A DNA stretch of 58,920 bases, counting the filler, from Dugesia japonica (lineage: Eukaryota): the NCBI GenBank assembly GCA_001938525.1. It is 4 parts of 4 records of this genome, joined end to end, with 100 filler letters (N's around TTAATTAATTAA, not from the genome) between each part and the next. Parts side by side here need not be neighbours in the genome. Positions count along the whole stretch, not along the records: positions 1 to 17,751 come from MQRL01610743.1; 3 more parts are not named here. The stretch is one strand, 5' to 3'. Below are positions 2,084 through 52,556 of this stretch, in pieces (the stretch's first letter is position 1; each line of letters starts with the position of its first letter). A program made the translations under genes and the position numbers. The notes beneath the pieces were generated by a model. That model ran no database searches. It saw only the letters and a program-made list of their open reading frames with translations, and was not told the origin of the DNA.

Positions 2084-2883
2084 CATTTTCACGTAAAAGT
2101 AACATAGAAAAGACACCTCTATTTAAATGTACATTACAACCAATGCCAACAAATTTTTAATAACTTCGATGAATAGATAGAATTTTTCTAACAAATCAGT
2201 TTTCTATTCAAGATTCAACAGAAACAATTAAAAGACTATTACTAAACCAGTAGTATATGTTTTGTGCCTGGAAGTTTTAGGGTGGACAGAATGGAATCTT
2301 AAAGTAACTCTGAGACTTTCTAAGTATATTTATGGGAAACACAACTATTGACTCGTCCGATATATTGGGTGGCATGCTTTCCTTCTCTTATTCGGATTAT
2401 TCCTTTGAGACTCACGTTTTTACTTTTGATTTGCATTTGAAATACTGTTTATATTTGANNNNNNNNNNNNNNNNNNNNNNNNNNNNNNNNNNNNNNNNNN
2501 NNNNNNNNCATTTTCACGTAAAAGTAACATAGAAAAGACACCTCTATTTAAATGTACATTACAACCAATGCCAACAAATTTTGAATAACTTCGATGAATA
2601 GATAGAATTTTTCTAACAAATCAGTTTTCTATTCAAGATTCCACAGAAACAATTAAAAGACTATTACTAAACCAGTAGTATATGTTTTGGGCCTGGAAAT
2701 TTTAGGGTGGAAAAAATGGAATCTTAAAGTAACTCTGAGACTTTCTAAGTATATTTATGGGAAACACAAATATTGACTCGTCCGATATATTGGGTGGCAT
2801 GCTTTCCTCCTCTTATTCGGATTATTCCNTTGAGACTCACGTTTTTACTTTTGATTTGCATTTGAAATACTGTTTATATTTGA
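2084..2883 (+). repeat. Near-identical ~375-bp direct duplication (2084-2458, 2509-2883) either side of an N gap
   Basis: Both copies begin CATTTTCACGTAAAAGTAAC and differ by a handful of substitutions; probably an unmerged assembly overlap. Confidence 0.8.
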
Positions 2884-3352
2884 GGAAATTTACATTCATT
2901 TCTTAAAATTAATTTGTGACATTCATATTATTATGTAAAATTTAATTTACGGTAATCCGTCATCACTAAGATCGATTTCAAATTCCGCAATTAACTAAAA
3001 GCTTTTTTAGATAAGGTCTTTGAGCGATAAAAAATACGTGCTTACAATTTACAATCCTAAAAAAACTATTTTGTGAGAAATAATACTAATATGAATATTT
3101 GGAGACGGAATGATAGTAAAAGATTTCAGAAATGAAATTCTAATTCATTGTTTAGTAATCAAAATGGGAAATTGACATATTAATAGACCAATTACTAATA
3201 CTAAAGAATTAGATTTGAAAATATGTTGCCTTTATGATGTCTTTATTATAGGTTGTACTTTCGTGGGGCAACCATGAGCGTAAAAACGCATGATTTTACC
3301 TATTGAGTAATAATAAGGATACAAAGTAACAAAATTATTTATAATTTAATAA

Positions 3353-3358
3353 TTTACC
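3353..3358 (+). repeat. 6-bp target-site duplication TTTACC (left copy; right copy 16187-16192)
   Basis: Identical hexamer immediately outside both TIRs; 6 bp is the typical Polinton integrase TSD length. Confidence 0.95.
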
Positions 3359-3630
3359 AGTAATGGTATTGTGGTTAACCTTAGCCACCATCATTTTCAT
3401 AGGAAACCGCCATTTTTTCATTTTTTAAAAAAATCGAAAAATGCGCGATTTTTCATAAAATATTGAATAATAAAAAATCGAAATTTTCCGATTTTTCATA
3501 AAAAATTCGCGATTCATGATTTTACATAAACTATAAAACAATTCGCGATTAATGATTTTAAATAAAACATGAAAAATTTTTAATGAGCGATTTTAAATAA
3601 AGCATAAAAAATTCTTCAACTAAAGATTTT
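3359..3630 (+). repeat. Left terminal inverted repeat (~272 bp) with 3 units of a ~35-bp internal repeat
   Basis: Matches the reverse complement of 15742-16186 from AGTAATGG to CAACTAAAGATTTT; about 5 differences in the outer ~175 bp. Confidence 0.93.
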
Positions 3631-3656
3631 TCGCGATTAAACTATTTGTTTATAAA

Positions 3657-4791
3657 ATGGAATGTAAAAAAAATATAGTCGCACCGACACAACATTGAAT
3701 CTAAATGGTTCTGTGTGCGACACAATTTAAAAATCAATTTGCAGTTTTTTCCAATACACTAAAAACTGCACACCAGAAAAATATTTAGTCACTGAATTAT
3801 TCCTTTAGAAAATGGTAGTTAAAGAACGAGGACAAGTGCAGTATTTAATATAATAAAAACTTTGGGTATTGATGAGGATTGTGAGTTGGGTGAAATTGAA
3901 GAATATATAAAATGTGATGTTACAATGGAAGCGGCAAAAGAAAAATTAATATATCTTAATCAAATTTTTAAAGAAGCAGATGAAATGAATTTAGAAGAAG
4001 AAAATCTTAAATTATTTAAACGAGTATTAGCTTTTATATTTTTTCAAACAACAGATGGTGACTGTAAAGGACTTGCGTTAAATTTAATTAATGGAGAAAA
4101 TGAATATTTTTTAAAAATAATAGAAGAATTAAAAAGTCTTACAAAAAGAACGAGACGAGCACAACATTGCACTTGCTAAATTAAAAGAACAAACAAAACC
4201 AAGTAAAATAGAGTATAATGTTTTTAGTGTTAAATAGGAACCATAATTAAATGAAAACGGCAGAGCATATGTAAAATCAAAAGATGTTAGTATGCTTTGT
4301 AACAGGGCGAAGGAAAGAGTAAAAAAATTTGAGGTTGGTAATAAATATGTAAAACTAGAAATACCCAAAGAAATTAAAACTATAGAAACTGCTAAAGTTA
4401 AAAAANTACATTAAAAAATGTCTGATGTTTTTATTACAATGTTAAGGAATTATGATTTTGTAAGTAATTCAGTAAAAAATTTTTGTAAACTTCGCACACT
4501 AAGTGAAAAAACTATAAGAGCATATTTAAATAAGTTTAATATTCCATATAATAAAAGAATCCAAAAAACAAAACTATATAGGAAAAAAATGGAAGATCTA
4601 TGTCTTTAATAGAGAGATATGAACTTAATGAGCCTGATGTTTTTTCTATTATTGGAAAAATGAGAAAAGCGTGGATAGATGTTACAACGAGACACCTGAT
4701 GAGTGGTCTGATGAGCGACTTAATGAAACACACCACGAGCCAGCCTACGGTAAAAGCGGCAACTGTGAAAAACATGTTAAAAAATTATTAA
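3657..4791 (+). pseudogene. One or two disrupted Polinton accessory genes of unknown function
   Basis: ATG in TATAAAATGG context just inside the TIR; ORF pieces 3862-4179, 4418-4609 and 4600-4791 can be linked across frameshifts and stops; no recognisable motif. Confidence 0.5.
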
Positions 4792-4796
4792 AGAAA

Positions 4797-6055
4797 ATGG
4801 AAGTAAAAATAAATCTCGATAATAATATTATATTTACTCATAAATTATTAAAAAATGACATTTTAAAAATTTCACCAACATCTGGTTCAATAAATAATAT
4901 GTTGGGTGGTGGGGATGTAGTTTTTCAATCTTTACAATCTACGAATCCCTTGGATATTTGTAATGCAATGTTATACTTTAAAATAGAATTAGAAAACGAA
5001 GCCGATAAAACAGCAGTTTTAGAAAATAATTTTTTTCCATCTTTATTTAAAACAATGATATTAAGACTTGGGGCGTCTGATGTTGAAACTATTAATGATC
5101 CAGGCATAATATCAACAATGTTAAATTTTATTACAACAAGTTATACTCATAGACAAATATATGGACAATTATCAGGATGGATTCTAGATGATGATAAAAG
5201 AAAAATATTATATGCAAGTAAAAAATTTGGAGGCTATTTTCCATTGAGAATTTTATTTGGATTCATACAAATTTTAATAGAGTTCTTTACAATACAATGA
5301 TTGAATTTTGTTGCAATCGACAAATAGAGGATAAATTTATATTTAAAGGAGAAGGCACACCAAAATTAAAATTAACAACTCTCGAATTACACATTCCACA
5401 ATGTAGATTAACGCCTAAAATGGAATTAATGCTTTTAGAAAGAATCTCAACAGATAAACCAATTAAAGTTGCATTTTGAAATAGAATAACAGGAAAGATG
5501 ACATTTGATTCTGGAAATTATTCATCTTATAAAATAAGCAATCTTTCTTATAAACCAAGATATATTTTTATAGTGATAAAAGATGAAGATATTTCTTTTG
5601 CAAATAATAATAATTTATTTATTCAAAAAAAATCAAAAACTGTTAAAGTCGATGCAAAAGATGTAATTAAAAATTATTATTTAAAAACTATGCAAATTCA
5701 GTTAAATAATAATTACTATCCAATTAATGAATGTAAATTTTATATGGCAAAGAATGAAATGATTTTTTCCTATTTTAGTTATATAAAATGTTGTCAAGAC
5801 TTTTTCACAGAACCACAATTATCTCATCAAGAATTTGGCGAACTATATCCAATTTTCTGTTTTGATGTAACAGCCCAAGATGATAGACTAAATATATATA
5901 ATGTTGATGTTACATTACACATTACAAAGGATCCAAATTTTACTGGAAATCTTTACTGGTGCATTCTTGAGGAAAAACATATAGAAATGAAATTAGCTAA
6001 TAATAAAATTGCCATGATTGAAAATGTGCGAGGTGTTGAATTTATTAATAAATAA
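4797..6055 (+). pseudogene. Double jelly-roll major capsid protein (hexon-like), one frameshift (~5268) and one in-frame TGA (5477-5479)
   Basis: Reconstructs to ~420 aa with Polinton MCP-type motifs LENNFFPSLF, FPLRILFGF, KPRYIFIV, LNNNYYP, YPIFCFDVTAQ. ORFs 5297-5479 and 5498-6055 are in the same frame. Confidence 0.85.
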
Positions 6056-7261
6056 ATGACTAAAACAAGTAAATTTACATGTGAAAAATGCAATAGATTC
6101 CTCTTGAAAAAAAATAAAGCTAGATATGTAAAAATTTGTAAAGGAGGCGATCTTCAAAAATCAAGTTTTGTTAGTAATATTTTAAAACCAATTACTTGGG
6201 AAAAATATTCTGGTAAAAGACATTTATTCCATCACAATTACACCGGTTCAGGAACTAGATTAGAATTAGACTTGATGAAAATAATAATCCATTACCAGGA
6301 GAAGAACCAGTTAATCAAGTTGATGCAGCAGCATTGAAACATGATATGGCTTATAATTCAGAAGATCTTAAAGATCGACACATTGCGGGTGTAAATTTAA
6401 TACACGACCTAGAAAATATTAAAAATCCTACAATAGCAGAAAAATTTCAAAGAGCTCTTGTAAAAATGGCAATGAAAGGTAAAATATTAATTGGCCAAGG
6501 TATAGCAGATGAGCTTCATCGTGATTATAGAAAACCAAAACAATTATTAAAAGTAACAGTAAGTGAAGTAGATGAAACTTGGTCAGCAGATTTATCTTTT
6601 CATAATAAAAAAATAATACTAACTGTGATTGATCTTTATACAAGATTTGCTTTTGTAGAAATTTGTGAGAAAAAAACCGGCGAGGTTGTTACTGACGGAT
6701 TTGAAAGAATCCTAGAAAAAAGTAATCAAGTTCCAAATAATCTTTGGGTTGAAAGGGGAAAGGAAGTTTACAACAAAACATTTACCGCCTGGTGTAAAGA
6801 AAATAATATTAACCGTTACTCTACTTATAATCAAGGAAAGGCAGTTGCCATTGAAAGATTTAATCGTACATTTAAAAACAAACTCTTTAAACATTTTACT
6901 GCCGTTGGGAATCAAGAAATCACCCTCAAATTATTAGAGAAAACAGTAGATGATTACAACAACACCATTCATTCTTCAATAGAAACAACTCCAAAACATG
7001 CATATGAAACTGGTAATGTTTTTGAAAAAGAAACTGAGATTTTTAAAAATCAAAAATTTAAAATAAGAGATTGAGTTAGAATATTTATAATTTAAAAAAA
7101 ACACATTTGAAAAAAAATATAGATTTAAATGGAGTCCGAGGATTTTCACTATTACAAAAATTTATCCAACAAATCCACCAACCTATCAAATTATGGATGA
7201 AGATGATAAAAAAATTCTTGGGAGATTTTATGAGAGCGAGTTACAAAAAAGTTCTTTATAA
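6056..7261 (+). pseudogene. Zinc finger - phospholipase A2 - RVE (DDE) integrase fusion
   Basis: N-terminal CEKC-x12-Y-x3-C finger. After a 1-bp frameshift (~6268): HNYTGSGTRLE..EEPVNQVDAAALKHDMAY (parvovirus VP1u-type PLA2). Continues without a stop into ADELH, WSADL, LTVIDLYTRFA, LWVERGKE, IERFNRTFK, YNNTIHSSI. Tail KFKIRD*VRI...FEKKYRFKWS...GRFYESELQK ends at TAA 7259-7261. Confidence 0.88.
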
Positions 7262-7266
7262 AAAGG

Positions 7267-8022
7267 ATGAGCAGTTTAGTTTAGAAGAAAGACAAGACAA
7301 TTTTTAATAATAAACTTTTCCCTAGTAATTTTCGATTGTTGATAATTGGTTCCTCTGGTTGTGGAAAAAATGTTCTCTTGAGTCAAATGTTACTTACACC
7401 AGGTTTTCTTGATTATGACACTTTTATATTTTACTCAACTACAATTAATCAATTTGAAGTATAATTATTATATCACAGATTTTTAAATGGTTTAACAAAA
7501 CAAGAAATAATGTTAATGTTTGAGAAGCTAGCGATTGAGCCAGATTCATGTATCACTCCAACAGAGGTTATAGATTTTTTCATTCAAAAGAAATTTTTAA
7601 CAAAAAAACCACAAACAATAGAAATAATCCTAAGTAATAAAGCAAGTGATATTATTCCCTGTGATAGATTAAAAAGAAATTAAAAAAATCTTGTAATTTT
7701 TGATGATGTGGTAAATGAAAAAAATCAAGAAATTCAAAAAAGTTATTTCACTCGAGGTCGTCATTCAAATTGTAATATAATTTATATTTCACAAACATAT
7801 TATCACTTCGATAAAAATTCAATTAGAGGCAATGTAAATTGATATATATATTTTCGATTAAATAAAAAAGATCGTAATAGTGTTTATAGTGATTTATTTT
7901 CTTGTGTATTTAATGAAAAAGATGATTATGATTTTGAATTAAATTTTCATTGGAAACAACCCCATATATATATTTATTTAAAACATTTAACAAATGAAGT
8001 GACAACTGATTTATTTGCTTAA
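7267..8022 (+). pseudogene. A32/FtsK-HerA-like genome packaging ATPase with four in-frame stops (absent from ORF track)
   Basis: One frame reads FRLLIIGSSGCGKN (Walker A), NLVIFDD (Walker B), YFTRGRHSNCNIIYISQTY and IRGN. Confidence 0.92.
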
Positions 8023-8026
8023 GAAA

Positions 8027-8450
8027 ATGGAACCAAAAAATAGTAGTATAACAGAAGATGAATAATTTAAATTAATAAATTCAAATCATAGCAAATCTAT
8101 AAAAATTGATGGTAAAAATTATTGGATAGGTAAACAAGCAAAAGAAGAAATTAAAAAACATCAAAAAAGAAGGGGGGTTTTATTCCATTATTAGCTTTAA
8201 TACCTAGAATACTTAGTGGTATTGGCGCAGCCGCCGGCATAGCCAGTAAAATTGCATCTACCGTTTCAAATTCTCGTGAGGCAAATAAAAAACAAATTGA
8301 AATTGATAACCTTAATGAAGAAAGAGAAATTGAAATAGAAAATATAAACGAACAACAAGACGAAGCTATTTATAAATATTTAAAAAATCAAAAAGTAAAA
8401 CTATCAAAAGATTTAAAAAAGGGTGGGGAATATATTTAAAACCTTATTAA
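8027..8450 (+). pseudogene. Putative virion core/membrane-active protein with adenovirus pX-like motif
   Basis: Across frameshifts reads KEGGFIPLLALIPRILSGIGAAAGIASKIAS, a charged coiled-coil, then GGGIYLKPY*. Confidence 0.65.
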
Positions 8451-8451
8451 A

Positions 8452-9310
8452 ATGGATAGCGAAGCGAGACAATCAATAATAAGAAGAATTAAAGAATTAA
8501 AAGAAATAATTGCGGCTAAAGAAAAATATAATGAATATTTCTCCAGTAAAGTTCTTCAATCTAAAAACCTACTATCTTCACTTGCTTTTCAACAACAACC
8601 AACAATTTCAGCATTACAACAACAATCAAAAATTTCAGCATTACAACCAAAACTTCCAACTATGGAAATGGATACTCAAACAAAACCACAATTAAATATT
8701 CTTTTTGAAAAAAAAGAACCATATACTCCAACAGATATTGAAATGACTCCAAATATTAATAATTTAACTACAACAATAATTCCTCAATTTGATTATGAAA
8801 CTATTGGTGAAAAAATTTATATAAAAATAAAAATTAAAGTTAGAAAAATATATTTAGTTAAAGAAACTGAAATACCATATTTTTTTATACTTCCAAATAT
8901 ACTTATTCCATATTCAAACGGAGTAATGAATTTAATTTTAGGAAATATGAAAGGAACTGATGATATAAAAATAGAAGATAATAATATTTATTTATTTGGT
9001 TTAAAGATTGAACATTCTCATTTTAGTAATTATATAAAAACACTGAAAAAAAACTCCATTACCAGAGCAAAAAGTAGAACCAAAAACGCCACAAGTACAA
9101 CAACAAGTACAAATACACGGCACAACAGCACAAGGCACTGGAATTAATCTAATAGATTTATTTGAAAAATTAATAGTTTTAATTTCAGCTAAAAAAGTGG
9201 GTCATGAAAATACTAGTTCTGAAATAAAATCAGTCTGTGGAAAATTAAGAGCGAGGAAATTAATTTCAAATGAGAAATATAAAATTTATCAAAAAAAATA
9301 CTTTAAATAA
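8452..9310 (+). pseudogene. Conserved Polinton putative core protein (coiled-coil N-terminus, helical C-terminal domain), frameshift at poly-A ~9050
   Basis: ORF 8452-9147 shifts into PLPEQK...AQGTGINLIDLFEKLIVLISAKKVGHENTSSEIKSVCGKLRARKLI..*. This resembles the L-x2-L-x4-(A)G-x5-EI-x6-L C-terminal motif I recognise from beta-type adintovirus genomes. Confidence 0.6.
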
Positions 9311-9985
9311 ATGTCTCATCAGTTTTTAATTACTGGTAAAGGATCAAAATTAGAAGTAAATTTAAAACGCCCATTAGAGTTGAATGGAGAACACGAACTT
9401 TGTTTAATTTGCTTTTCCGTTTATAATATCATTTTTAATATAGAAAAGGAAGATTTTAATTTTATATTTGAAGGAAAAGAAGAAAAAATTCATCCCGGCG
9501 CTTATGAGGTTGATGAAATTTCAGAGAAAATAAAAGATTTAGGAATAGAGATAACTGCAGACAAATCAACCAGTAAATCTTTACTTATTATTCCAGAAAA
9601 GAAGACTTTAAAATTTGATGAAAAATCTTTCATTTTTAAACTTTTAGGTTTTAAACCCGGTGAGTATGCTTCTGGAAAATATTACTCAAATGAAAAAATT
9701 AACATTTCTGATATAAATATGATTAACATTACTTGTAATATAGTTAAAGGAAATTATATAAACAACAAAACAACTAATTTCTTATATTCATTTCCAACAA
9801 ATACTGTAAGCTTTGGATATAAAATTGTTGAAAGACCATCACCACCTATTTACTCGAGAATATCTTCTAGTTATATTGATGGCCTAAGATTTGAAGTTGT
9901 TGATGAAAATTTTAAACTTATTGATTTTAATAATGAAACTGTGTCATTATTAGTTCATTTAAGAAAATGTCCGCAGAAATCTTGA
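9311..9985 (+). CDS. Minor capsid protein (penton-like, single jelly-roll), intact ORF
   Basis: 224 aa; PLEL, PGAYEVDEI, LLGF, INITCNIVKGNYIN, LYSFP, GYKIVERP, VVDENFKLIDFNNE and terminal VHLRK are typical of Polinton pentons. Confidence 0.9.
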   Translation: MSHQFLITGKGSKLEVNLKRPLELNGEHELCLICFSVYNIIFNIEKEDFNFIFEGKEEKIHPGAYEVDEISEKIKDLGIEITADKSTSKSLLIIPEKKTLKFDEKSFIFKLLGFKPGEYASGKYYSNEKINISDINMINITCNIVKGNYINNKTTNFLYSFPTNTVSFGYKIVERPSPPIYSRISSSYIDGLRFEVVDENFKLIDFNNETVSLLVHLRKCPQKS

Positions 9986-10383
9986 ATTTTCTAAAAACAT
10001 TTGAAATTACTACAACTACAAATTTCGATCTTTATTCTATTGCTGACTTTTTAAAAATACCATTGGAAATTTACAAGAAAAATGAGTTGCCTTCTCATTT
10101 TGAAAATAATATTTTAAATTATGAAAATACAAATCAAAATGGCTCTCATTGGGTTGCTTTAAAGAATAAACATTATTTTGACTCTTTTGGTTTAAAAACA
10201 TTTCATGAAGATCTTGAAAAGCACGTAGAAAAATTTAATGAAATTCAAGTTCAACCTTTTGAAACAAGAATTTGTGGAGTACTTTGTATTTATTTTTTGT
10301 ATAGCTTTCCAGAAAAATCTTTTGATGATATTATTTCTGAAATAAATGAACATGTTTGGAAAAAGCTTACAGGCGAGGAATGA
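9967..10383 (+). CDS. Adenain-like cysteine maturation protease, intact ORF
   Basis: 138 aa with GSHWVA (His), YFDSFG (Asp), QVQ (oxyanion Gln) and ICGVLCIYFL (Cys). Confidence 0.93.
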   Translation: MSAEILNFLKTFEITTTTNFDLYSIADFLKIPLEIYKKNELPSHFENNILNYENTNQNGSHWVALKNKHYFDSFGLKTFHEDLEKHVEKFNEIQVQPFETRICGVLCIYFLYSFPEKSFDDIISEINEHVWKKLTGEE

Positions 10384-10393
10384 TAAAAGAATT

Positions 10394-11379
10394 ATGAATA
10401 GTCTTTATCCTAAATTAAGAATACATGATGCAAGTAATGAAAAAAGATTTGTAAATGAATCTGGCGACACTGTTAAATTTCTAAAAAATTATTGATAATC
10501 CTAAAGATGAATTGGATGCAGTAAATTTAAAATTTCTCGAAAGTAAATTAAAAACTTTAAAAATTCCTAATGACCCTAAAGATGAACATGATCCAGTAAA
10601 TTTAAAATATATAAATAAAATCAAACAAGAAATTGTTGCCTTTAATTTCCAGATTTTCAAACAATTAAAAGATGAACTTGATGCCATTAAAAGACAAAAA
10701 GAAATTGATTTTCTTAGAGAGTTAAAAATTATTGGCGACCCAAATAATAAACACAATCCACTTAAATTAAAACGAGAATTTAATCTTCTAATTTCTTTAG
10801 ACAAAAAGAACATCTTAACCCAGAATATGAAAAAAAAATTAATGAAAAATTAGAAATATAAATAAAAAAAATAAGTCTACAACGGTGTTGGAAAATTTAA
10901 ATGAATTAATTGAAAATTATTTACTATGAAATGATATTGAATTAGAAGAATATGTATTTTTTAAAATGTTTTTTTCCGTAGGTATGAAAATGAATTTCCT
11001 TATTATTCCGAGAATAAAATTTATGCATGCTTGGAAAAAGTAATAATAAATGGACGTTGGGAACAACCTAATGTTGAAAAACTATTTTTTTTCCTTGGAG
11101 TCCTTTAAAACTTTATTTTAAAGCTAAAACAGAAGTTGGTCCAATATGTATTTTTATTTCTGGATATACAAAAACACCTAAAATTAGTATTACTATTAGT
11201 TTTATTGGTTCTGATGAGATTGTAGATTTTAATTTAAAAAAACGGGAGAATTTAAATTGGAAATAAACACCTTAAATTTTAAATATGGAAAAACTGGGCA
11301 AAGTAGTGATATAAGAAATATTTTAACTGATAAAAGATCTGAGTGGTTATTGAATAGAATAGAAAGTGTAAAAATATAA
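10394..11379 (+). pseudogene. Putative fibre/spike-like protein, disrupted
   Basis: FVNESGDT followed by repeated P-x-D-x2-D-(A/P)-VNLK-(F/Y) units (NPKDELDAVNLKF, DPKDEHDPVNLKY, degenerate DPNNKHNPLKLK), coiled-coil segments and a beta-rich tail; located right after the protease. Confidence 0.5.
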
Positions 11380-11479
11380 ATTTTTTATTTGATTTTACCA
11401 GCAAATATTTATATTAATAACCTTGTACTTGTCTTGAAGATCATACAAAAATAATATTTGAAAATTTACCATAATAAAA

Positions 11480-12021
11480 ATGGCAGAAGAATCCTTGAAT
11501 CCAGATTTAAAAAATTATCGTGAGGAAATAAATAATTATACACTTGAAGATCTAAAATCAAAATTGTCATCTCTAAGAATTAAAGATTTTGAAAATTACT
11601 TATATTTTATAAATGATAAAATAAAACACTATCGAAAATTTTATAGTAAATAGGACAAATTTTATTTGGAACCGGCGTTGCCATTGTAGGTGTAATTTTT
11701 GCAACTCCACTTGGTCTTGGTATTACTACAATAGGTCTTCCTATAATAACTGGAATAGGATCTGTAATTCCAATTACTGGCGCTTTAAATTCATCACTAA
11801 TTCAAAAGAAGAAAAAGAAGTATGCAAATCTTATTGTAAAATTAGAGGCCGTAAAAAATAAACTTTTCCTATTTCAACAAAAGGCCTTAAATGTTAATAT
11901 TTTAACAGATGATGAAATTTCTACAAGTAAGACAATGATTCGGGAAGTTTAAGAAATAATTTTAAAATCAAAAGATCAAAATCCGGATTACCAAAATTTA
12001 TTAAAAGATTTTAAAGTTTAA
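11480..12021 (+). pseudogene. Two-transmembrane-helix protein with basic and helical C-terminal region
   Basis: MAEESLNPDL... then, after a frameshift, ILFGTGVAIVGVIFATPLGLGITTIGLPIITGIGSVIPITGAL, KKKKKY, KALNVNILTDDEI; the 3' end overlaps the PolB stop. Confidence 0.6.
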
Positions 12022-15000
12022 CCTGTGGGGCCATGTCCTAATACCATTATCCTCAATTAAAATTTTGTCATCATAGGCAGTCATTGCTATTTTATGTTGA
12101 GAAACTAATTCTACTTCATGACCTCGTGATTGCAAACTATAATTCACTCCATAAACTACTTCCTTGGGGTTCGCTAAAATTTTATCATACTCTTCCATTT
12201 TTATCTTATTTGCCTTAGCTGTGCCCTTGTGTTTTGCATTAAAATTTATATTTCTATCTAATGTCTCATAATTAACTCCATAACATTTCGAGCTTATAAA
12301 ATTACATTGTGTAATTTCACTATTAGGCATTTCATCTTTCATTTGAAAGAGTTCGTTTCCTAATAGTGTTTTAAACTTGTCCAAATTTTCTTGCCCCCTA
12401 ATTTCCACAAAGAGGGAATCTGTATCTGTATAGTGAATTTTTTACTTTTCTATTCCAATTAATGGTTCCATCTTTTTATATACAAAATTATACATAACTT
12501 CTTTTGCGTATTCTAAAATAGTAAAACCAATGTATGGAAATTTATTATATTTGAAAGTTGCCTGCTGCATGTGCATTGCTGCTGAAGTTGGAGAAAAAGT
12601 TTTTGAAGATTTGTAAGTTAGTTTCGAAGCAAACCTTTGAAATTCTTTATTAGTTCCTACAATTTCCACATTACAACGATTCCTAATATTTTCTAGGGTT
12701 TTACCATAAAAGGAATTATTTGCCATTTTAAAAATATGGTCCCCATTTTCATCACCATTTCGTTTCGCCTCATTTCTCTTCTCAACATTAAAAAGAATAT
12801 ATGGTCTTAACCACGGCCTTGTTGGCACTTTATATTTACAATGAATTTTTTTAACTTCATTCCAAGTTCCAAATATAAATCCAATGTTCTTCCAAGAATT
12901 ATGTAATTTTCTTTGTTAAATTGATTTAATGTTAATTTAACATTATCCTTTGAAAGTTGTTTATAAAATGCCTTTTGATATGGTGCTAGCATCTCCTCTC
13001 TAATATTTGTCCTCTCGTAGATCTCTGGAGGATATTCCAAATCAACCTCATAGAGGAAATTATAGTTGTCGGTTGATTTTTCGTATTCTAAATCCTCACA
13101 TTCTGTGAAATCACCTGTTGGAAGAGGTTTTGTCGTACAGGCGGAATATAAGGAATTTTGATCGATATATTTTATAAAAGTCTCTTCAATATATTTTTGA
13201 AGAATTTCTTCATTAGAATTTAAGATTGTTATTAAATCCTCAAAATCCGCCCTATTTAATTGCCTTGTGTGTGGGTCTTTCTTTGGATTGTAGCTAAAGA
13301 CTTGTCTCTCAGCAGTTACTGCTGATACTCCTCCACGGCTTCCTCCTTCATTTTTTAAAAAGTAATTGTATGTTTCTTCCTTTGCATATTTTAACCAAAC
13401 AACTGTAAATTTAATTCCAGCTATCCATGTAAGTCCTGGCTATGAGCAACAGTAACATGGATCGATTTCATAATATTCTATAGAAAGTTCACGAAAACTT
13501 TTGAAAAATTCCGCAAGAATTAAAACGTCGATTTTCATATAGTGAAGTGTATATTCCCACATATTTTTAAATGAAAAAAAGTCTATTAAAAAATTCTTAT
13601 ATTCTATGTCGGTTATGTATTTTGTTTTAGTTCGCTATGAAAATCGTCTGCTGTGGGAATTTTATTGCTTTTTAATAATTTTATTACCTCTTGTGTGTTT
13701 GAACCTTTTACATTTTCATAAGGAAATGATATTTTTTTGCTTTAAGATTGAAAGATTTTAAATGTGGATATTTGCCGGTTTTATTTAATTTTTCACCCAT
13801 TCCCTCAATCGATATCAGTGGGCACATTCTGCATGAATCAAGGAATCTAATTCTTTTAAATCTAAAAGAAATATATTCCTCATCATTGTGTGGTATAATT
13901 CCTTTAATATCATTTGGGTGTTTTTCTTTAAGTTCTCGGAAAAATAAGTGATTATCATAACCAGCCGCATTATGAAAGTTAAATGGTATAAACAAATTTG
14001 TCTTAATATTTTTATATTTAAAGTTACAAAACTCATGTGCGCCGCATATGAATTCTCCATTAAAAAAGTTATAGACCTCTTCTATATTTTCCCATAGTGT
14101 TTTTTTACAGTAAAAACATTCATTTTTTAAAATTCTAGGTTGTTGCTTAATTGTAAGTAATGATTTTATTTCTATTATCTCATTTATTTTTTCATTTAAC
14201 TCTTCTAAAAATTTTATAAAATCATTTATCACGTTTTCACTAGAAAATACCTTATACTCTGTTTGAATTAAATCTTCGTGTTTGCTTGCAAGATAAACTC
14301 CAAGGGCGATTGGTTTTTGTTTTTTACTGAATGTGTTGGTGTATGCTTCAAAATCTCCATAAACCACGAAAGGAGCTTTAATCATAAAATTATAATCCCT
14401 AAATGAAAAATATTCCTTTGTCTCAAATTTAATTTCCCGGGGGTCATAATGAGCACACTCCCTTTGATGTCTTTTAAATAATACTTCGCTTTGATAAGCA
14501 TTCATAAAATTTACACACAAATGTTTTTTATGTGCCACACTAATAAATCCATTTAAATTTTTACACAAAATATAATGGCCCTGATAAATTAATAAATTAC
14601 ATTTATTTTCTTCTTGTGGTGGGCGGGGATCATAATAAGAAATATGAATTGGTTGTAATGATTTATCATTTTTTATAATTTTCAACTCTAAGACGTTAAT
14701 CTTCCAATTGTTTAATCTTTCAAATAGTTCTACATCATCAATCTTTGCTGGAAAATTAACCCCAGTTAAATTAAATTCATGAATGTGGGGTATATAATTA
14801 TTTTGTCTTGTTGGATGATCATAAGTGTATTTATGTGCTAAAAATGAATAGAGAAAACATTTATCATCATCATTTTTTATGTTAACAACTCCCCATTTAA
14901 TAAATGGTAACTGCACATATGTGGCACTCACCAATGATTTATAATATTCAAGAGTAAATGTAAAATTTATTATGAAGTCAAGAGACCACCCACTCTCACT

Positions 15001-15650
15001 CCTTTCCTGATCGGATAAATATTTATCTATTTCACTAATTAAACTCCCCACAGAATTTTTAATTTGAGATGCAATTGTTATTCTTATATTTTTTGCATAA
15101 AACCTGAAAGTTCTTGTTGTTTCCACATAATTTACAATTTTACTATATTTCCCTAATGCAGAAAGACGAATAAGTATTTACCACCTTAAATTAAAGAACT
15201 TTACTGTGTAAAAAATAATTTGTCTAAATCCCGTTTCAGAAATGTCTTTGGTAAACTCGATTTTGCTATTTCTAAAATATTCTATTTTATATTCTCGATA
15301 TTTTTCAATATTAAAAAACGTGGTAATTTCTATCATCTCTTGCGTTCTTTCTGGTTTTGGTAATTGCCTTCTATGCGCGTTGCCCGCGTAATGTGCTTTT
15401 GCTATACCTTGATTTGAAAATGTTAAATGACAAATTTCACATTTCAAACTTTCATTATCTGGGTTCCAACATAATGATGAAATTTTATGTTTTTGTAGAT
15501 GGATTTTTGTTTTAAATCCTTCACCGCACTTCTCAAACGGGAAAAAACTATTGGTGTTTTACATACAAATAAATTTCTGTGGGTTGTAAGACCCGAACGA
15601 TTTTTAATAACTGCTCCACAATACTGACACTTGAATATTTCCACTGCCAT
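12001..15650 (-). pseudogene. polB: Protein-primed family B DNA polymerase (~1215 codons) with three N-terminal zinc fingers, multiply disrupted
   Basis: ExoI VYGDFEA, ExoII FHNAAGYDNH, ExoIII HYMKID; polymerase motifs YIDQNSLY (~13150-13170), KMANNSFYGKT and YTDTDSL (~12413-12433). ORFs 15178-15447 and 13708-15126 share a frame separated by one TAA. Confidence 0.95.
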
Positions 15651-15741
15651 TTTATAAAGATAAACTTTAATCATATTTTTAAAATCATGGCTTAAAATTT
15701 TCTGGGTGTGAGGGGTGCCTCTTAAAGCGGAATTTTTATTT

Positions 15742-16186
15742 AAAATCTTTAGTTGTAGAATTTTTCATGTTTTATTTAAAATCGCTCATTAAAAATTTTT
15801 TATGCTTTATGTAAAATCGCTCATTAAAAATTTTTTATACTTTATGTAAAATCGCTCATTTTAAATTTTTCATGTTTTATTTAAAATCGCTCATTAAAAA
15901 TTTTTCATGTTTTATTTAAAATCATTAATCACGAATTTTTTATAATTTATGTAAAATCACTCATTTTAAATTTTTTATGTTTTGTTTAAAATCGCTCATT
16001 AAAAATTTTTTTATAGTTTATGTAAAATCATGAATCGCGAATTTTTTTGAAAAATCGGAAAATTTCGATTTTTTATTATTCAATATTTTATGAAAAATCG
16101 CGAATTTTTCGATTTTTTTAAAAAATGAAAAATGGCGGTTTCCTATGAAAATGATGGTGGTTAAGGTTAACCATAATACCATTACT
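15742..16186 (-). repeat. Right terminal inverted repeat (~445 bp) with 8 units of the ~35-bp internal repeat
   Basis: Unit consensus (minus strand) AATGAGCGATTTTA(A/C)ATAAAACAT(G/A)AAAAATTTTT, tandemly repeated over about 15760-16030. Confidence 0.93.
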
Positions 16187-17751
16187 TTTACCTTTTTACG
16201 CAACGCAAACAATTTAAAAAGAATATAAATTATATTGTGATTGCAGTTTTAAACTTAAAAATATTTAAACTACAAATGAATTTCAAGAAAGATTAATGAA
16301 CGCAATAAATTAATGCTAAATACAGTATCAAATGAAATTAAATTGTACGGATTGGAAAATCATTTAATTTATAAAATTACTGAAGAAAAAAGTCAATTCC
16401 TGAAGAAGACTAAGTCGAATTGTTATCAAATATCAATAAAAAAAACAAAACATTTGATCGAAGCTTTTATTTTAAATGAATTCTGTAAAACGATCAATGG
16501 TTATGTTCAACAATAATTCTCGCAATAATTGTAATTGGAAAACCATTCATTCAGAATTGTAAATTGAAAATTCAATTTAAAAATATTTAATATTATTATA
16601 CACTGAGGAAGCAAATTTGTTATTTGATTTGCGTATAACGTGGTACAGACTGTTTAAAATTTTTATGGAAAAAGTTTCAACTTCAAGATAACAAAGTATT
16701 TGAGACTAAATCCCGACAGTGATGGTTATATTTCTTGGAGAGAATTTATAGCAGATGGCATCATTTATATTCCAAGACTAAGCATTCTTTTCTCTTCTCG
16801 TAAATGCAGCATTTTTAATCACCAGTAACAATGTGAGGCAAAAAAGCTCACTATTGCTGACGAGCTAGTGATGAAACGTAAATATCGACACTCTTATTTT
16901 TATTGATTTTAGTCAAAGCTCGCAGCACATATACACCAATTTTTGAACTTTCCCATGGATTTTAAAAGTCAATTAGTTCTAATCCACCACAATGGCCAAT
17001 TTCCGAGTTGTTTGGCGTGAATTTTAATGAATTAAGAAGGCCGTATAATCATCATCAAGGATTCATTGTCTTCAAGAACGCTGAGTATAGTTTATATCAA
17101 AATGACCTGCTTTGAAACGTGAAAATTATTTTTCTGCTGTACTTTTTACAATTGCATTCTTTCCAACAAACTGCACAAATGGTTCTTTTAGTTTCAGCAG
17201 GATTTGTTGAATTCAAATAATAATATGTCATTAAGATAACTTTAACATTTGCCTAAAAATACTCTTTTTTAAAAACATTGTTGCTTTTTAAAGAAATTCT
17301 ACTATCTTATGCATCAACACAATTCTATAAAGTTACCAATATCATACTGTGATCGCAAAATAATAATATTAAACTATTATAATGAGAGAAAAAAACAAGA
17401 CGAAATGTCTCGGTTTTTTATTAAACTTGTTTAACGTTATTCATTGTAAAAGGTAGAAATAGAAAATTAATTTTAAGTAGTAATGCCAAAATGATTTTTA
17501 GTTGGGTAGATATTTTTCTATTAAAATTCCCAAGAGGAGTTTGTAAGTCGACAGCAAAAATTACTGAAATTGTCTCCATTATTTGCTCAAAAGACACAGT
17601 ACCCCATAATGCCAAAATATTGTCTAAGAAAAAATTTGCAGAAACATTTTTATTTTAATTAAAATGCCATGTTGTCACTCATCAAATAAATGTAAGGTCT
17701 TTAAATGAAATATTTCTTCGCATATTTGTTCTTCTGATGAAAATACATTAC

Positions 17752-17851
17752 NNNNNNNNNNNNNNNNNNNNNNNNNNNNNNNNNNNNNNNNNNNNTTAAT
17801 TAATTAANNNNNNNNNNNNNNNNNNNNNNNNNNNNNNNNNNNNNNNNNNNN
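17752..17851. other. Artificial scaffold-joining spacer
   Basis: Exactly N44-TTAATTAATTAA-N44 (stop codons in all six frames). Confidence 0.95.
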
Positions 17852-18420
17852 TTGAAAATAAAAAGAACCAATGAGAAATTTATAACTGCAGAAAGATCAA
17901 GAAACCGATATAATCGAGTACATGCAATTCAAGATGAAGATTTCAGTACAAACGATGGATATGAGGAAGTATATTAAAGTGATTCCAAAAGGCACTACCC
18001 AAAAGGCAGGGCTCCACCAGTAGAAGAGTTGGTTGGAGACATCCATTGTTAAATGAAGTGAGTAATTATCCTCAAGGAGTCGAAAAGTGGCATGATATAG
18101 GAAAAGTTAAAGAAAAAGTATACAGGTTCTTAAAGAGAGAAAATTTTGCGGATGATATAAAAGTTGAATGGGTTGGAGCAGTTGAAGCAGAAAGGAAAAC
18201 AAATATTTTGTACCTGAAAGTGCAATGCAGACCACGTGTTACAATCTCAATTCAAGGAAATAAAGTCGAATGTCTATTAGATACAGTGGCTCGAATTAAC
18301 GTGATGAGTTTGAGTTATTTTAATAAATTACGAGAAGTAAATTTACAAATGAATGATGAAAGATTGCGTTGTGCAAATCATAGTTTACTTTAAATTGTTG
18401 GGAAGTTAGAACTGGAGTGA
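17852..18420 (+). mobile_element. Gypsy gag end / aspartic protease fragment
   Basis: VECLLDTVARINVMS (degenerate DTGA motif), LRCAN. Confidence 0.7.
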
Positions 18421-21400
18421 TAATTGATGAAGTTGATGGATATTGCAGCGTAGAACTAAAACCCTAAATGTCAAATTCTTAAATAAATAACGAAATTTCT
18501 GAATGGTATATTCATCGTTGGTCTGTTCAACAAATTATCCTAACCCTTAAGGGGTTGTAATTCTTCCAATAATTATAATGATCAATAAAAATTGTCACTA
18601 AATAATGACGAAAGAAATAATTATTAAAAATACCACGACCATAGTAATCACACGGTAAGCCTTGAAGCAATATGATATTATAAACATATCGAAGGCATTC
18701 CGGGGGTAATATTAATAGAAGTAAAAGGATAAGTCCTAAAGTAGTGTTGATTTTCCAGTGATAAAACAGGATAGGCAATTTTCTGAAAGCTAAAATCATT
18801 AAAACCCGTATTACTGTAATGTGACGGAGAATTGCATAGAGCCACTGTCAATAACTATTTGATCCGTAATAATGTTAAAATGATAGCGGTAAAGATATGG
18901 GAACACTTAGTTTAGTCTTATTAATCATGAAGACGACCATTAAAGCTGGTATGGATTACGATTGTAATAAACAGGGTGAGAAGTTTATTGCGATGTCATA
19001 ACGTTACTAATACTAACCATAATAAGGGTAGTGATGATGTTAATGATATAATGTTGACACCTTTAATATAATAAAATTAATAGTAAGAATATAATAATAA
19101 TTCTAATAACAGAATAACAACAAAATGACCACAATATAAAAATAATTTCACAATTAAAAGATTANNNNNNNNNNNNNNNNNNNNNATTCCGCTGGCGTCA
19201 CAAAAAAATCATCTCTTTTATTACGATATTGTTAATCCTACTAATAGCGATCTACATAATGTGGTAAACCATTGCGTTTAGCATCAAGGAATAAATATGA
19301 GATATTTAATCCTTTATAGATAGAACAAACATTACTACCCATAAGGATAATAATTCGTGTGCAATAAAACACAGAAATAATATCATTAACATTTACATTT
19401 TGGAACCTAGTGATGTCTGCAAGAGTAGATTTGAGATGTTTCGGATAGGATTTCAATTACCTCATCTTAATTCCAATTTACGCTTTATCTAAGAATGTCT
19501 GATAGAATGATCATCATAAAAATATACAAAACAAGACTGATCTCCAAATTAATAGCAAGATTTGATCCCAGTATTGAGATTGTTGGATGAATTTAATAGA
19601 GACAAGGCAAGTGTGAGTTGCATATAATACATTCAAAAAGGGTTATTCACTCTTGTTGTGTTGGCAGTTTGTGATTCAGCGCAACACACATACTAGTTTG
19701 TTTTTCTGGCTTAATATACTGAGTAAAATTAGAACACGATCTGGTACCACTGAATTATCATGTGAATTAGAGATATTTTAAGAAAAACATAATAAGTAAT
19801 CTTTTTCCGCTAAGCATGTGCATTTATGTTTGCCGAATTTAAGTCTGATCTGAGTAGTTCGTTATTCACCAGATATTAATTGCTTTAGATAAATGTATAG
19901 ACTTAGTTAACAGTTTAAATAATTAGTGAATAATAACACAAATAAATATTAGGATAAAGATTTTATTTAGCAATTATTAATTTATAATATGATTATTATT
20001 GAATTATGGCAACTCTTAACATATTCATTGATAAAATCATAGTTAATAATTTGTTCAACATACATAATGAACACTACTTACTGTTATAATTTAAGATTCT
20101 GCAAGGGATTTTTCTAATGATAAATGTAGATTTGAATGTGAATAACGGCTTCTGATTCCTTTTAAATGAAATTAAATTTTCTGCTAAATGACGGTAATTT
20201 TACTTTGAACTCTTTTGCTTTTCCAGTCAACGTGATGATATTTCTTGAAATTAGTCGAAGTTACTGTAATTTGTTGTTTTGTAGACATTTATACTGAATT
20301 CAAAAATATAAAATACAGTTTTGCATCAAAATTTGATAGAACCCTAAAATGATCTAGGTTAATTATGTTTTATCTTTGAATTAACTGGAAAATAATTAAT
20401 AATAAATCGCATTAAAAATATTCTAGGAATATTTCAACGCAAAAGAAAAGTCAATCAGAATATCTATAAATAATTTTGATTATGATTATGATTATAATAA
20501 ATTTATTAAAATTAAAACAATTAAATTACGAAATAAGTATTAGATTAAATAATTTTTATTGAGATATCTTACAAATAAATAAATTTCCAACATTTGCTTG
20601 TAAATAGTTAGATCATAAACATAACATTTTACGTGAATAATTATGAATTTATATGAGAATTCATGAAACAATATATAAATGAATTTCATTGTAAATTCCG
20701 TTGATCTGCATCAACTTTCCAAATTTAATGTTCGCACTATAATATGCCAAAAAGCCATTGTTTTCAACTGATGGCATCTTATTTGAATTAAAATACGGAT
20801 ACATGTCTGGTATTTTATCGTATATTACGATACCACCATAATCAGAGTTACAATCGTTCATATTTTTCAAAATATGAAATGACCTCAAATCCACACCTTG
20901 ATTGCCTTGTTTACTAAATTAATCAAATTTTTCTGCAAGAATTCCATGGAAATGATCCTATTAAATTTGTCTGGTTAAACCATTCATCATACCCTTGTTG
21001 TCAACTAGAAATGAAAGCCAAGCAACAATTTCATCATTAAAATTTCTAATTGTTAAATTGATCATGATTGATCGAATTGTATTCCATTCATTTAACAAAA
21101 CACTTTTAAAATTATCAGTAAAATTTTGATTCATAAATTTTTTATTTGATTTGTATCAATTATAGAATTGTTGTAATTATCTTTCGACGTGTAGTTTTGC
21201 AACGAATTTATAAGACTACAACTAACAATTCTAAATAAAATAACATTTGGTGATTCTTTTCTGAACAGCTTGCTGATGTTTTTATTTGCGTAATTTATGG
21301 TTGATGTAGCAAATTGGCAGGAATCATTAACCATAAAGAAACAATCAGTGTTCATTAGCCTTTACATAGAAGAGCAATTTAATATTTAAAACATAAATTT

Positions 21401-21999
21401 CATTGTTAAATTGTCAAATAGATGCCAATAATCTATAACACATATTCATGAAAATGATTGAACATCTATCAAATTGTGATGATGGATTTGAAGATTTAAT
21501 GTTCAACCAATAAAAACAATACACACTTCTTTCAAAATTCTTTACTCTTTAATAGGGTTTGTTATTTTGTTGCTAGAGTTTAAGTAAGGCGTTTAACAAT
21601 CATATTGGTTTTATAGGAATGATAAATTTTGATTGTTATTCACACAATATTTCAAAAATTAAATAATTAAGCTCAATTATAATTATTATTTTCTTTATTT
21701 GTCGGTTATAAAAAAAATTTTGAAAAATAAATCGAAGATTTCATTCGTTAATTTATGAAATGATTCTTTTAAAATAATGAAATCAACCAATTATCTTAGG
21801 TAAATCTTTTAAAGATAATTTATTTTCCTTGTAGCAAATATTCATTTCAAACATTTTCTTTCGCAATTATCAAGTATATCTAATTCAAATGAATATATGG
21901 TAAATAGAAATAATTATATAAAATAAATTATTTTAATACATTTCTACTGGCGGAAATTATTAATTATTTCCATATATCCATCTTCTTAAGAAACCTTCA

Positions 22000-24760: not shown

Positions 24761-24899
24761 TTCGAGTTTATGTATCTAAAAGACATTCAACTTTATATCC
24801 TTAAAATTATACATTAACACTTGGTCTTTCTTATAATTCATGTTACGAAATATATGTAACCTGTTCTGCTTCAATTACTCCAATCTATTATATTTTTTA

Positions 24900-26720: not shown

Positions 26721-27168
26721 AATTCTTCAACTTTTCCATATTTTTTCCAGCAAATCTTTATTTAACAAACAAGAAACTAATCTTTTCTGTTCTTTCTTCT
26801 GGGTAATTATTTAAGAAACAAAATACAATTTACAGCGCTTTATGAATTTTTCAATATCATCTCGTTTTCAAAACACATTTGGTAATAACATATCTGTAAT
26901 TAAATAGTTATTCACCGATGCCATTATCTTCTAAAGATAATGAATTTTCTAAATCGTAACAATTAATTTTACACATATTTATATTTCCAATTTAAAACTA
27001 TACATTTATTTAATAAAACAAAGTGAAATAGAAACTAATAATTAATAAAAAATAATTTATCTCAATTCCAATTGGTTGAAATCATTATTATGCATTTCCT
27101 TATAAAAGCTATTAAACTTAATACGCATAACAAACCATCACTTGGTTTATTTCTTCCAATGCCTCTGT

Positions 27169-27667
27169 AGTAGAAAGATAGTGGCGGGAAGCACCACCTG
27201 TGTGCGAACCCCCCCACCGATTAGTGATGTAATTAGTGCGATTATCTGAAATTTGATCGTTAATCTATGATGTAATTACATCATCGGTAATTTAATCCAT
27301 CAATTAAATTTATTATCTGAAATTTAATAGTTAATCTATGATGTTATTACATCATCGGTAATTTAATCCATCAATTAATTTTATTATGCAATTTTTAATT
27401 AGAATTATTTTTTACAATAATTTTAATCCTACAATTAAATTTATTATGCAATTTCTAACTGGTGTTACTTTTTCCTGTGTATTTAGTTGGGAAAATTTTT
27501 CAAGCTTATTAGACGGCAATGTGGTGTAACTTTTTCCTTTGTTTTTAGTTGGCAATATTTTTCCGTGTGGATTTAGTCAGCAATATTTTTCCGTGTGTAT
27601 TTAGTTGGGAAAATTTTTCTAATGTAAATAGGCGGCAATATTTTTTACAGGCTTTTTAGGTGGTAAT
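27169..27667 (+). repeat. Putative terminal (TIR-like) fragment of another Polinton-like or DNA element, with internal tandem repeats
   Basis: Starts AGTAG, GC-rich CTGTGTGCGAACCCCCCCACCG box, two ~69-bp repeats, then ~30-bp TTTTCCGTGTGTATTTAGTTGGGAAAATT units; same motifs recur at 52675-52964; runs into the scaffold end. Confidence 0.45.
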
Positions 27668-27767
27668 NNNNNNNNNNNNNNNNNNNNNNNNNNNNNNNNN
27701 NNNNNNNNNNNTTAATTAATTAANNNNNNNNNNNNNNNNNNNNNNNNNNNNNNNNNNNNNNNNNNNN
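27668..27767. other. Artificial scaffold-joining spacer
   Basis: N44-TTAATTAATTAA-N44. Confidence 0.95.
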
Positions 27768-29250: not shown

Positions 29251-29265
29251 TCCAAATACATTATA

Positions 29266-52112: not shown

Positions 52113-52146
52113 ACAATTTAATTTCAATTGAATATTCATTATACAA

Positions 52147-52551: not shown

Positions 52552-52556
52552 AAATT

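Follow-up and report, generated by a model that had tools for sequence, protein, structure and literature searches.

A decayed Polinton/Maverick of Dugesia japonica in which a PLA2 domain is joined in frame to the integrase

Introduction

Mavericks are defined by terminal inverted repeats (TIRs) with 5'-AG...CT-3' ends, and the vertebrate survey in which this definition is given reports intact copies of 12,723-24,620 bp, with 96% of loci degraded (Barreat and Katzourakis 2021, PMC8097293). The integrase of alpha adintoviruses is described as carrying a C-terminal chromodomain (bioRxiv 10.1101/2024.03.25.586562). Virions of mavirus are reported to hold the integrase together with a cleaved hydrolase, and the mavirus protease to cut GG|X and GX|G (PMC6048507). 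Parvovirus VP1 has a phospholipase A2 (PLA2) that serves entry and is attached to a protein of the virion (PMC5803895, PMC4642659), and virion packing has been proposed for the Polinton PLA2 as well (PMC4642659). It is a long-standing question whether the Polintons of animals produce infectious particles, and whether integrase is carried in them. In retroviral Pol the integrase is delivered within a precursor that is processed by a protease.

The locus described here lies in a stretch of 58,920 nucleotides, filler included, that was analysed as a whole (the window). It is almost certainly a Polinton fossil, full-length but decayed. Its one unusual feature is a parvovirus-type PLA2 domain joined in frame to the integrase, which was overlooked in a preliminary description of the locus and of which no account was found in the literature searched. 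Apart from this fusion, the copy in the window is an ordinary fossil.

Results

Boundaries and terminal repeats

The body of the element extends over 3359-16186 (12,828 bp) and is flanked by TTTACC on either side (3353-3358 and 16187-16192), the 6-bp target-site duplication expected of a Polinton/Maverick; two random hexamers from the window are identical with a chance of 8.5e-4. The exact boundaries and the 6-bp duplication of the preliminary description thus hold, and its span of 3353..16192 is right except that it takes in both duplications. The element begins AGTAATGG and finishes CCATTACT, so that its TIRs have AG...CT termini, and a 22-nt end motif is restricted to the two element ends (0 matches in 100 shuffles). 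The left TIR (3359-3630, plus strand) has an inner 35-bp tandem repeat of 3.3 copies at 3498-3614. The right TIR (15918-16186, within 15759-16186, minus strand) partly includes the corresponding array of 7.7 copies at 15759-16029. In the outer TIR columns 175/180 are identical, with 3 mismatches and 2 one-base gaps; identity drops to 90.4% across all 272 bp aligned by blastn because the inner part is the tandem repeat, with 3.3 copies on the left and 7.7 on the right. The empty-site joint (3358 to 16193) was absent among the 15 joints listed of 300, and an uninterrupted paralogous copy of the flanks was not found within the window.

Gene content

All Polinton/Maverick core genes are present: PolB, an rve integrase, an A32-like ATPase, an adenain-like protease, a double-jelly-roll major capsid protein and a single-jelly-roll penton. 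PolB lies on the minus strand, convergent with the other five on the plus strand, which is the layout given in the preliminary description; its assignment to Polinton/Maverick is supported by the ends, the 6-bp duplication and the full morphogenesis set. Genes of the element abut or overlap.

On the plus strand, a 118-aa open frame (3823-4179; no Pfam match, no match in 93 loci) and short frames with weak, below-cut-off helix-turn-helix matches (4247-4791), which hold the single N of the element at 4406, have no assigned function. The major capsid gene (4797-6055, plus strand) matches PF21738 above the cut-off in its 3' part (E 1.1e-7), is frameshifted once (at about 5235-5270) and interrupted once by an in-frame stop (at 5477), and is 51-58% identical at the protein level to the intact 431-aa P0143, itself a PF21738 match at E 1.8e-27. 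It is followed on the same strand by the fusion gene (6056-7261) and by the A32-like packaging ATPase (7285-8022; PF04665, E 1.4e-10) with in-frame stops at 7462, 7681 and 7840. Apart from the PLA2, a pX/mu-like core peptide is encoded at 8155-8439 (plus strand; PF05829, E 5.7e-4, below cut-off), which aligns with the pX half of a PLA2X protein of locus L002 (E 0.003). Two overlapping plus-strand frames at 8440-9310 form a protein without assigned function or Atlas match.

The penton (minor capsid protein; 9311-9985, plus strand) is an open frame of 224 aa recognized by its predicted fold: the model has a pLDDT of 81, and its top fold match is the mavirus penton (E 1.4e-7), followed by the Sputnik and adenovirus pentons. 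The adjoining protease (9967-10383, plus strand) is an open frame of 138 aa with His/Gln/Cys invariant across 9 aligned rows, and its profile matches the structures of S273R (E 2.5e-5) and adenain (E 9.1e-4); adenain was recovered from the PDB by the profile and not by the single sequence, whose Pfam match is below cut-off. Further along the plus strand are a protein with a 75-bp spaced repeat (10346-10853), possibly a fibre in view of a weak match to a repeat protein of L010 (E 0.015), short fragments without Pfam match or assigned function (10930-11376), and a small hydrophobic protein in two frames (11462-11952; top Atlas match 0.81, weak), which is possibly membrane-active and is offered as a lead.

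PolB (12001-15177, minus strand) is of the protein-primed type and aligns with PolBs of 1254-1387 aa over three stretches. Its frame shifts at least twice, at about 13630-13760 and 12850, and in-frame stops interrupt it at 13440 and 12442; its Exo and Pol motifs are retained, with PF03175 just under cut-off (E 6.9e-6). Minus-strand C2H2 zinc-finger frames at 15178-15764 (PF00096, E 4.6e-6), which are in the PolB frame across a stop, are probably the N-terminus of PolB. The N-terminal part of PolB also has candidate Cys and His motifs, which may belong to an OTU-like domain, a feature of alpha adintoviruses.

Decay and expression

At least 12 stops and frameshifts are spread over four of the six core genes, whereas all core genes are open in a Maverick classed as intact (PMC8097293). 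The terms complete and intact used in the preliminary description therefore apply to the ends and the gene set, and not to the genes themselves. The element belongs to a family with many diverged copies in its host. RNA-seq mapping, which the preliminary description had proposed, gave almost no reads in three runs, with a mean depth of at most 1.4 across the element. That the element was once virion-forming, as the preliminary description has it, is an inference from gene content. Its small size had been put forward as a distinction, yet 12.8 kb falls within the published range, near its lower limit, which rules out size as a novelty; given the intact range of 12,723-24,620 bp and the degradation of 96% of vertebrate loci, a decayed copy of this length is ordinary.

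The PLA2-integrase gene

The fusion gene encodes a zinc-finger-like N-terminus, PLA2 and rve integrase, and both PF08398 (E 1.9e-5) and PF00665 (E 7.8e-9) score above cut-off inside one stop-free frame. The gene breaks near 6260-6275 and 7072-7097, with the PLA2-integrase junction within the single open frame 6259-7071, and it is colinear with the 463-aa P0001 and the 448-aa P0003. Its PLA2 (6298-6504) and the separate pX (8167-8301) match two halves of one L002 protein, yet here sit in different genes. A search of the fusion gene for a chromodomain gave no chromo match, and the closest intact relatives stop at the same place; in the clade of the window the integrase ends a few residues past the last conserved motif. 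In the model of the fused protein (pTM 0.49) the domains stand apart, and the link between them is of low confidence. A fold search with this model listed only integrases and gave no match that would confirm the PLA2 fold; foamy-virus integrase is matched by the model of a relative (E 1.9e-14).

The idea that the fusion is mere damage to the present copy was rejected, as homologues and cluster representatives have the same Pfam pair; the fusion is very probably ancestral. Both families occur in 7 of the 120 homologues listed, at 43-50% identity and with PLA2 and integrase motifs aligned. Among the best 150 representatives of 50%-identity clusters, in-house profiles found both domains in 34; Pfam confirms both in 26 of these, two of them in the reverse order integrase-chromo-PLA2. 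A role as general substitute for the chromodomain is ruled out, since four N-terminal and both reverse fusions retain one. The fused proteins are predicted from sequence. Most Mavericks do without the fusion, which is absent by the same profiles from 116 of the best 150 representatives.

In 16 of 80 metagenome loci PLA2 and integrase share one frame, and in 47 PLA2 lies immediately upstream of the integrase; the selection of loci inflates these counts, a PLA2 pattern having served for the scan and a fused protein for the ranking. None of 13 viral-contig loci is fused, and 8 have PLA2 elsewhere, not adjoining the integrase. Single-sequence scans of viral contigs with integrase and capsid found no relative, nor was one found in phage records. 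At locus L044 the fusion is accompanied by ATPase, penton, protease, capsid and PolB. Inverted repeats of L044 and L052 were rejected as element ends: their end motifs differ, one overlaps PolB fragments and the other recurs internally. Such repeats are absent from 18 other long loci.

The integrase clade of the window (31 rows, support 100/99) contains 24 fused rows, 1 with adjacent genes, 5 cut by a contig edge and 1 unfused, and it retains the fusion through gene-order changes (L017, L021, L024) down to about 40% identity. A single clade of all fused rows is weakly rejected (AU p 0.03, for a group picked after a tree had been seen). The fusion state changes 11 times on a 69-row tree versus 17 or more times in 200 shuffles; this tree was built quickly, 28 of its 66 branches are open, and rows scored as unfused may be incomplete gene calls. 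These trees suggest several origins of the fusion.

A GxG/GG motif, the one cut by the mavirus protease, follows the PLA2 domain in 22/25 scoreable fused rows (3 lack it, and 8/33 rows could not be scored) versus 2/115 background windows, and it stands before PLA2 in both reverse fusions. Stand-alone PLA2 domains also end in GxG/GG (7/8 viral-contig rows), so the motif may be inherited and not retained for the fusion.

Discussion

By analogy with known Polinton biology, the element would have been inserted by its integrase, which would therefore have left the 6-bp duplication; protein-primed PolB would copy it, and the ATPase would package the genome into a double-jelly-roll capsid with pentons. 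The predicted PLA2 would be a virion protein for endosome escape, and an integrase tethered to it would enter the particle at one copy per PLA2. Cleavage by the adenain-like protease at GX|G would then release PLA2 to the membrane and allow the integrase to move with the DNA to the nucleus, resembling the processing of retroviral Pol. We favour the reading that this decayed many-copy Polinton/Maverick had an in-frame PLA2-integrase through which integrase was likely loaded into particles, the two parts possibly being split by the element's own protease. A packaging role of the fusion is fairly probable in view of the integrase and cleaved hydrolase in mavirus virions and of the virion packing proposed for the Polinton PLA2, and proteolytic cleavage at the PLA2-integrase junction has slightly less than an even chance. 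We more tentatively propose that a virion-packed PLA2-integrase precursor, split by the capsid maturation protease, arose in Polintons more than once and with the domains in either order.

The fusion could instead be a tolerated by-product of compact genomes, in which the PLA2 and integrase genes, often neighbours, lose the intervening stop and an inherited GxG lets the protease undo the join, with no gain in packaging. The presence of the motif in stand-alone PLA2X proteins, the 116 unfused representatives among the best 150, the scattered tree states, which suit easy gain and loss, and the abutting or overlapping genes of this small element agree with such an origin. It is nevertheless rather unlikely, because the 8 viral-contig loci that have PLA2 as well as integrase keep the two genes apart, fusions occur in both orders, and the clade of the window keeps its fusion despite gene-order changes and divergence to about 40% identity. 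Less likely again is an uncut, intracellular protein in which PLA2 would aid the passage of integrase and DNA across the endosomal or nuclear membrane, or would replace a lost chromodomain in targeting, with or without virions. The clade of the window indeed has no chromodomain, 3/25 rows lack the junction motif, and some linkers are just a few residues long. However, the chromodomain is retained in four N-terminal and both reverse fusions, the motif fits the specificity reported as proven for the mavirus protease (PMC6048507), and the model has separate domains joined by a low-confidence link.

It is very improbable that several copies of a high-copy family were assembled into a mosaic at this locus, such that the complete element and some of its breaks never occurred on one molecule. 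The assembly of the window is gappy (40 N runs), diverged copies are many, the best sequencing runs contain just 0.27-0.41 of the words sampled across 2900-9000, and no contig spanning the whole element was found. Against a mosaic stand the matching 6-bp duplication, with its low chance expectation, the one N inside the element, the colinearity of the genes, and contigs from independent runs that differ at 0-2 positions at five internal places and in the left flank.

A predicted entry enzyme covalently tied to integrase, across dozens of divergent lineages and in both orders, is hard to explain without particles. If the packaging reading is true, it would mean retrovirus-like integrase delivery in a dsDNA virus and would be indirect evidence that animal Polintons integrate straight from infecting particles.

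Comparison with known systems

The element resembles the animal Mavericks/Polintons (Polintoviricetes) described in PMC8097293 in its TIRs with AG...CT ends, in the 6-bp duplication, and in two convergent modules with genes for PolB, integrase, ATPase, protease and the major and minor capsid proteins, and resembles the vertebrate copies of that account in size (12.7-24.6 kb) and in being degraded, as are 96% of loci. It differs from the animal Mavericks as described there in having PLA2, fused to the integrase. With alpha adintoviruses/group 2 Maverick-Polintons, as described by Starrett et al. 2021 (PMC8502044) and in bioRxiv 10.64898/2026.06.19.733378, it shares PLA2 and pX-like sequence, adenain, penton and hexon. 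Its PolB has relatives among the insect-type PolBs (26% to a Nasonia protein), and for penton, ATPase and protease its matches to relatives such as L002 and L010 are at 25-31%. Whereas PLA2X in those viruses is a PLA2 with C-terminal pX, here it is split, with PLA2 on the integrase and pX encoded on its own behind the ATPase; gene order differs, and the integrase is without the chromodomain described for alpha adintoviruses. Like mavirus (Born et al. 2018, PMC6048507), it has an rve integrase, a lipase-type enzyme, a clan CE protease and a penton fold. As that source presents it, mavirus differs in encoding its integrase apart from its hydrolase, in the type of that hydrolase, which is alpha/beta and not PLA2, and in its dependence on a giant virus. 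Unlike parvovirus VP1, in which PLA2 is part of a capsid protein, the element has its PLA2 tethered to integrase, with processing that is predicted.

Element boundaries and size

The Polinton/Maverick copy occupies 3359-16186 (12,828 bp) and is flanked by copies of TTTACC at 3353-3358 and 16187-16192; two random hexamers of the window are identical by chance with a probability of 8.5e-4. It starts with AGTAATGG and ends with CCATTACT, and a 22-nt end motif occurs at the two element ends only, with no matches in 100 shuffles. The inverted repeats are identical in 175 of their outer 180 columns. The 90.4% identity over the 272 bp aligned by blastn is explained by the inner part, where a 35-bp unit is repeated in tandem, 3.3 times at the left end and 7.7 times at the right end. 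The GC content of 26.6% is near that of the rest of the window (28.5%). The duplication, end motif and inverted repeats bear out the exact ends claimed in the preliminary description. The element was also called small against a typical 15-20 kb, but 12,828 bp falls inside the 12,723-24,620 bp given for intact vertebrate Mavericks in the accessible text of PMC8097293, where the repeats are reported to span 46-1,447 bp and the duplications 6 bp. In view of this range and of the 96% of vertebrate Maverick loci described there as degraded, a decayed 12.8-kb copy lies at the low end of known sizes and not beyond. The earlier observation is confirmed, and its interpretation is supported in part.

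Gene content and state of the copy

The plus strand begins with frames without assigned function (3823-4791), followed by the major capsid protein (4797-6055), which exceeds the PF21738 cut-off once the in-frame stop is read as X and shares 51-58% identity with an intact 431-aa homologue (P0143). The integrase gene (6056-7261) comes after the capsid gene and precedes the A32 ATPase (7285-8022; PF04665, E 1.4e-10), a pX/mu-like peptide (8155-8439; PF05829, below cut-off) and a gene without assigned function. The penton (9311-9985) was modeled with a pLDDT of 81 and has the mavirus penton as best match (E 1.4e-7), and a 9-row profile of the protease (9967-10383) matches the structures of S273R and adenain. 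3′ of the protease come a repeat protein, fragments and a small hydrophobic protein. PolB is on the minus strand (12001-15177), preceded by C2H2 zinc-finger frames that are probably its N-terminus. The layout described earlier, with morphogenesis genes on the plus strand and PolB on the minus strand, is right. In a close relative (L024:872-4315) integrase and then PolB lie on the same strand, and, as the window does, this relative has a zinc-finger-like motif at the start of the frame upstream of PolB.

Scored against intact relatives, four of the six core genes carry at least 12 breaks: one frame change and one stop in the capsid gene, two frame changes and one stop in the integrase gene, three stops in the ATPase, and at least two frame changes plus two stops in PolB. 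Penton and protease are open. The core genes can be aligned almost from end to end and so show no large deletion; this concerns the core genes, and accessory genes may have been lost. As a copy the element is ordinary, a fossil of a type already known.

Copies and transcription

The family consists of many diverged copies. Four runs labelled as one organism gave 16,027-32,417 contigs per run on 2830-17750, totals that include a short right-flank repeat; about half are 90-95% alike, and together the contigs cover all 30 bins. Summed contig depth, which shows many diverged copies and is no copy number, ranges from hundreds to more than 20,000 across genes and falls to 9-26 in the bins at the far edges of the flanks. 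No empty-site joint was present among the joints listed (15 of 300). Three raw RNA runs, sampled at 6%, 25% and 25%, gave no sign of transcription in these samples: mean depth over the element did not exceed 1.4 on either strand, and 97-100% of placed reads matched in part only. Most placed RNA reads fall on a very high-copy short repeat at about 16386-16542, 200 bp right of the element. This repeat, with a summed contig depth of 166,000-325,000 in its bin and opposite-strand joints, is possibly a MITE.

Other features of the window

A relic of a second, unrelated Maverick (50533-52800, plus strand) retains an integrase C-terminus with a weak chromodomain match (E 0.037). The frames 3′ of it presumably resemble penton, PW/gasdermin-like and capsid pieces of Beta/group 1 type; they found no Pfam support, and the relic has no match among the 93 compared loci. 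Fragments of gypsy-type LTR retrotransposons at 17983-18434, 23194-26488, 34728-35207 and 50041-50415 include reverse transcriptase (E 4e-26 and 2.5e-19), a zinc knuckle and, weakly, aspartyl protease. Together with the gene content, such fragments in the flanks suggest an AT-rich eukaryotic host, probably an animal. A 375-bp direct duplication (2084-2883, 97.6%) on either side of an N run is likely an assembly artefact. The gaps at 17752-17851, 27668-27767 and 42559-42658, each 44 N, 12 bases (a TTAA repeat in the first) and 44 N, are assembly spacer and not biology.

A fusion of a predicted phospholipase with integrase

The stop-free frame 6259-7071 joins a parvovirus-type phospholipase A2 (PLA2)-like domain (PF08398, E 1.9e-5) to the rve integrase core (PF00665, E 7.8e-9), a feature that the preliminary description missed. 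Both families occur in 7 of 120 listed homologues (43-50% identity), and in two others the alignment extends over the PLA2 motifs as well. Among the best 150 matches of a profile search across 1.84 billion representatives, 34 have both domains by our own profiles; Pfam finds both in 26, integrase only in 6 and PLA2 only in 2. Two of the 26 (P0194 and P0262) have the reverse order integrase-chromodomain-PLA2. In the compared loci, whose counts are enriched for the fusion by construction, 16 of the metagenome set (best 80 of 148) have PLA2 and integrase fused within a single frame; in 47 PLA2 lies immediately 5′ of integrase, but short or disrupted by lesions; 11 have PLA2 only and 6 integrase only. 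None of 13 viral-contig loci is fused and 8 carry PLA2 as a separate gene. Capsid followed by fusion, the order of the window, recurs in L017, while L021 and L047 are ordered otherwise; in L044 the fusion occurs together with ATPase, penton, protease, capsid and PolB. Among variants of the fusion, one (L036:399-1706) carries in its N-terminus a Walker A-like piece similar to the beginning of the packaging ATPase, and two (P0162, P0294) begin with DUF5679 (PF18930). P0171 has a 280-aa extension ahead of integrase that begins with the apparent end of a PLA2 domain.

PLA2X, in which PLA2 is attached to the pX peptide, is a known gene (PMC8502044, in its accessible part). The PLA2 half of the PLA2X protein of locus L002 matches the window at 6298-6504 and the pX half at 8167-8301, so that the known gene has come apart here, with the PLA2 half now attached to integrase.

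At least two origins of the fusion, counting the reverse-order pair, are firmly indicated, and further ones are likely. In an integrase tree of 92 of 182 candidates, with unfused proteins thinned, the integrase of the window falls in a 31-row clade (support 100/99; 24 fused, 1 adjacent, 5 contig-edge, 1 unfused), separate from another fused clade that has 25 rows. Grouping 26 fused or adjacent rows, picked after the first tree, against 14 others was rejected by the AU test (p-AU 0.03). A 69-row quick tree (34 fused and 35 of 100 unfused candidates) requires at least 11 changes of state versus at least 17 in 200 shuffles; 28 of its 66 branches are open, its "unfused" rows may be truncated, and it has no root, so gain and loss are indistinct.

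We found no published account of this fusion, although the graphic maps, slides and tables of PMC8502044, bioRxiv supplements, Repbase and subscription papers lay outside the search and could show one. The recurrent fusion is a new variation, and the mechanism proposed for it can be tested.

Possible role of the fusion

Of 33 rows examined, 8 could not be scored; in 22 of the other 25 a GxG or GG stands after the PLA2 domain, compared with 2 of 115 background windows from the integrase part. In both reverse fusions a basic stretch and GxG stand immediately ahead of PLA2. Mavirus has a related protease that cleaves at GG|X and GY|G, and its virions contain integrase as well as a hydrolase processed near GK|G (PMC6048507); for Polintons, packing of PLA2 into virions for entry has been proposed (PMC4642659). 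Our preferred reading, in which the fusion and the motif are observed and packaging and cleavage inferred, is that a PLA2-integrase precursor was probably packed into the virion, where the maturation protease would split it. That packaging and cleavage both apply is a possibility we put forward tentatively.

The same motif also ends stand-alone PLA2 domains (7 of 8). The fusion might be a tolerated by-product of compaction, which we think rather unlikely. The model of the intact homologue P0003 has separate domains (pLDDT 71, pTM 0.49), with integrases only among the fold matches listed. That the protein stays uncleaved and acts inside the cell seems improbable. We give very little credence to the locus being a mosaic.

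Comparison with known elements

All tested defining features of a Polinton/Maverick were found in the element. It would work like an Alpha adintovirus. However, that group is defined by a PLA2X gene and an integrase chromodomain, according to the accessible parts of PMC8502044 and bioRxiv 10.1101/2024.03.25.586562, and since the element has neither we do not file it as an Alpha adintovirus.
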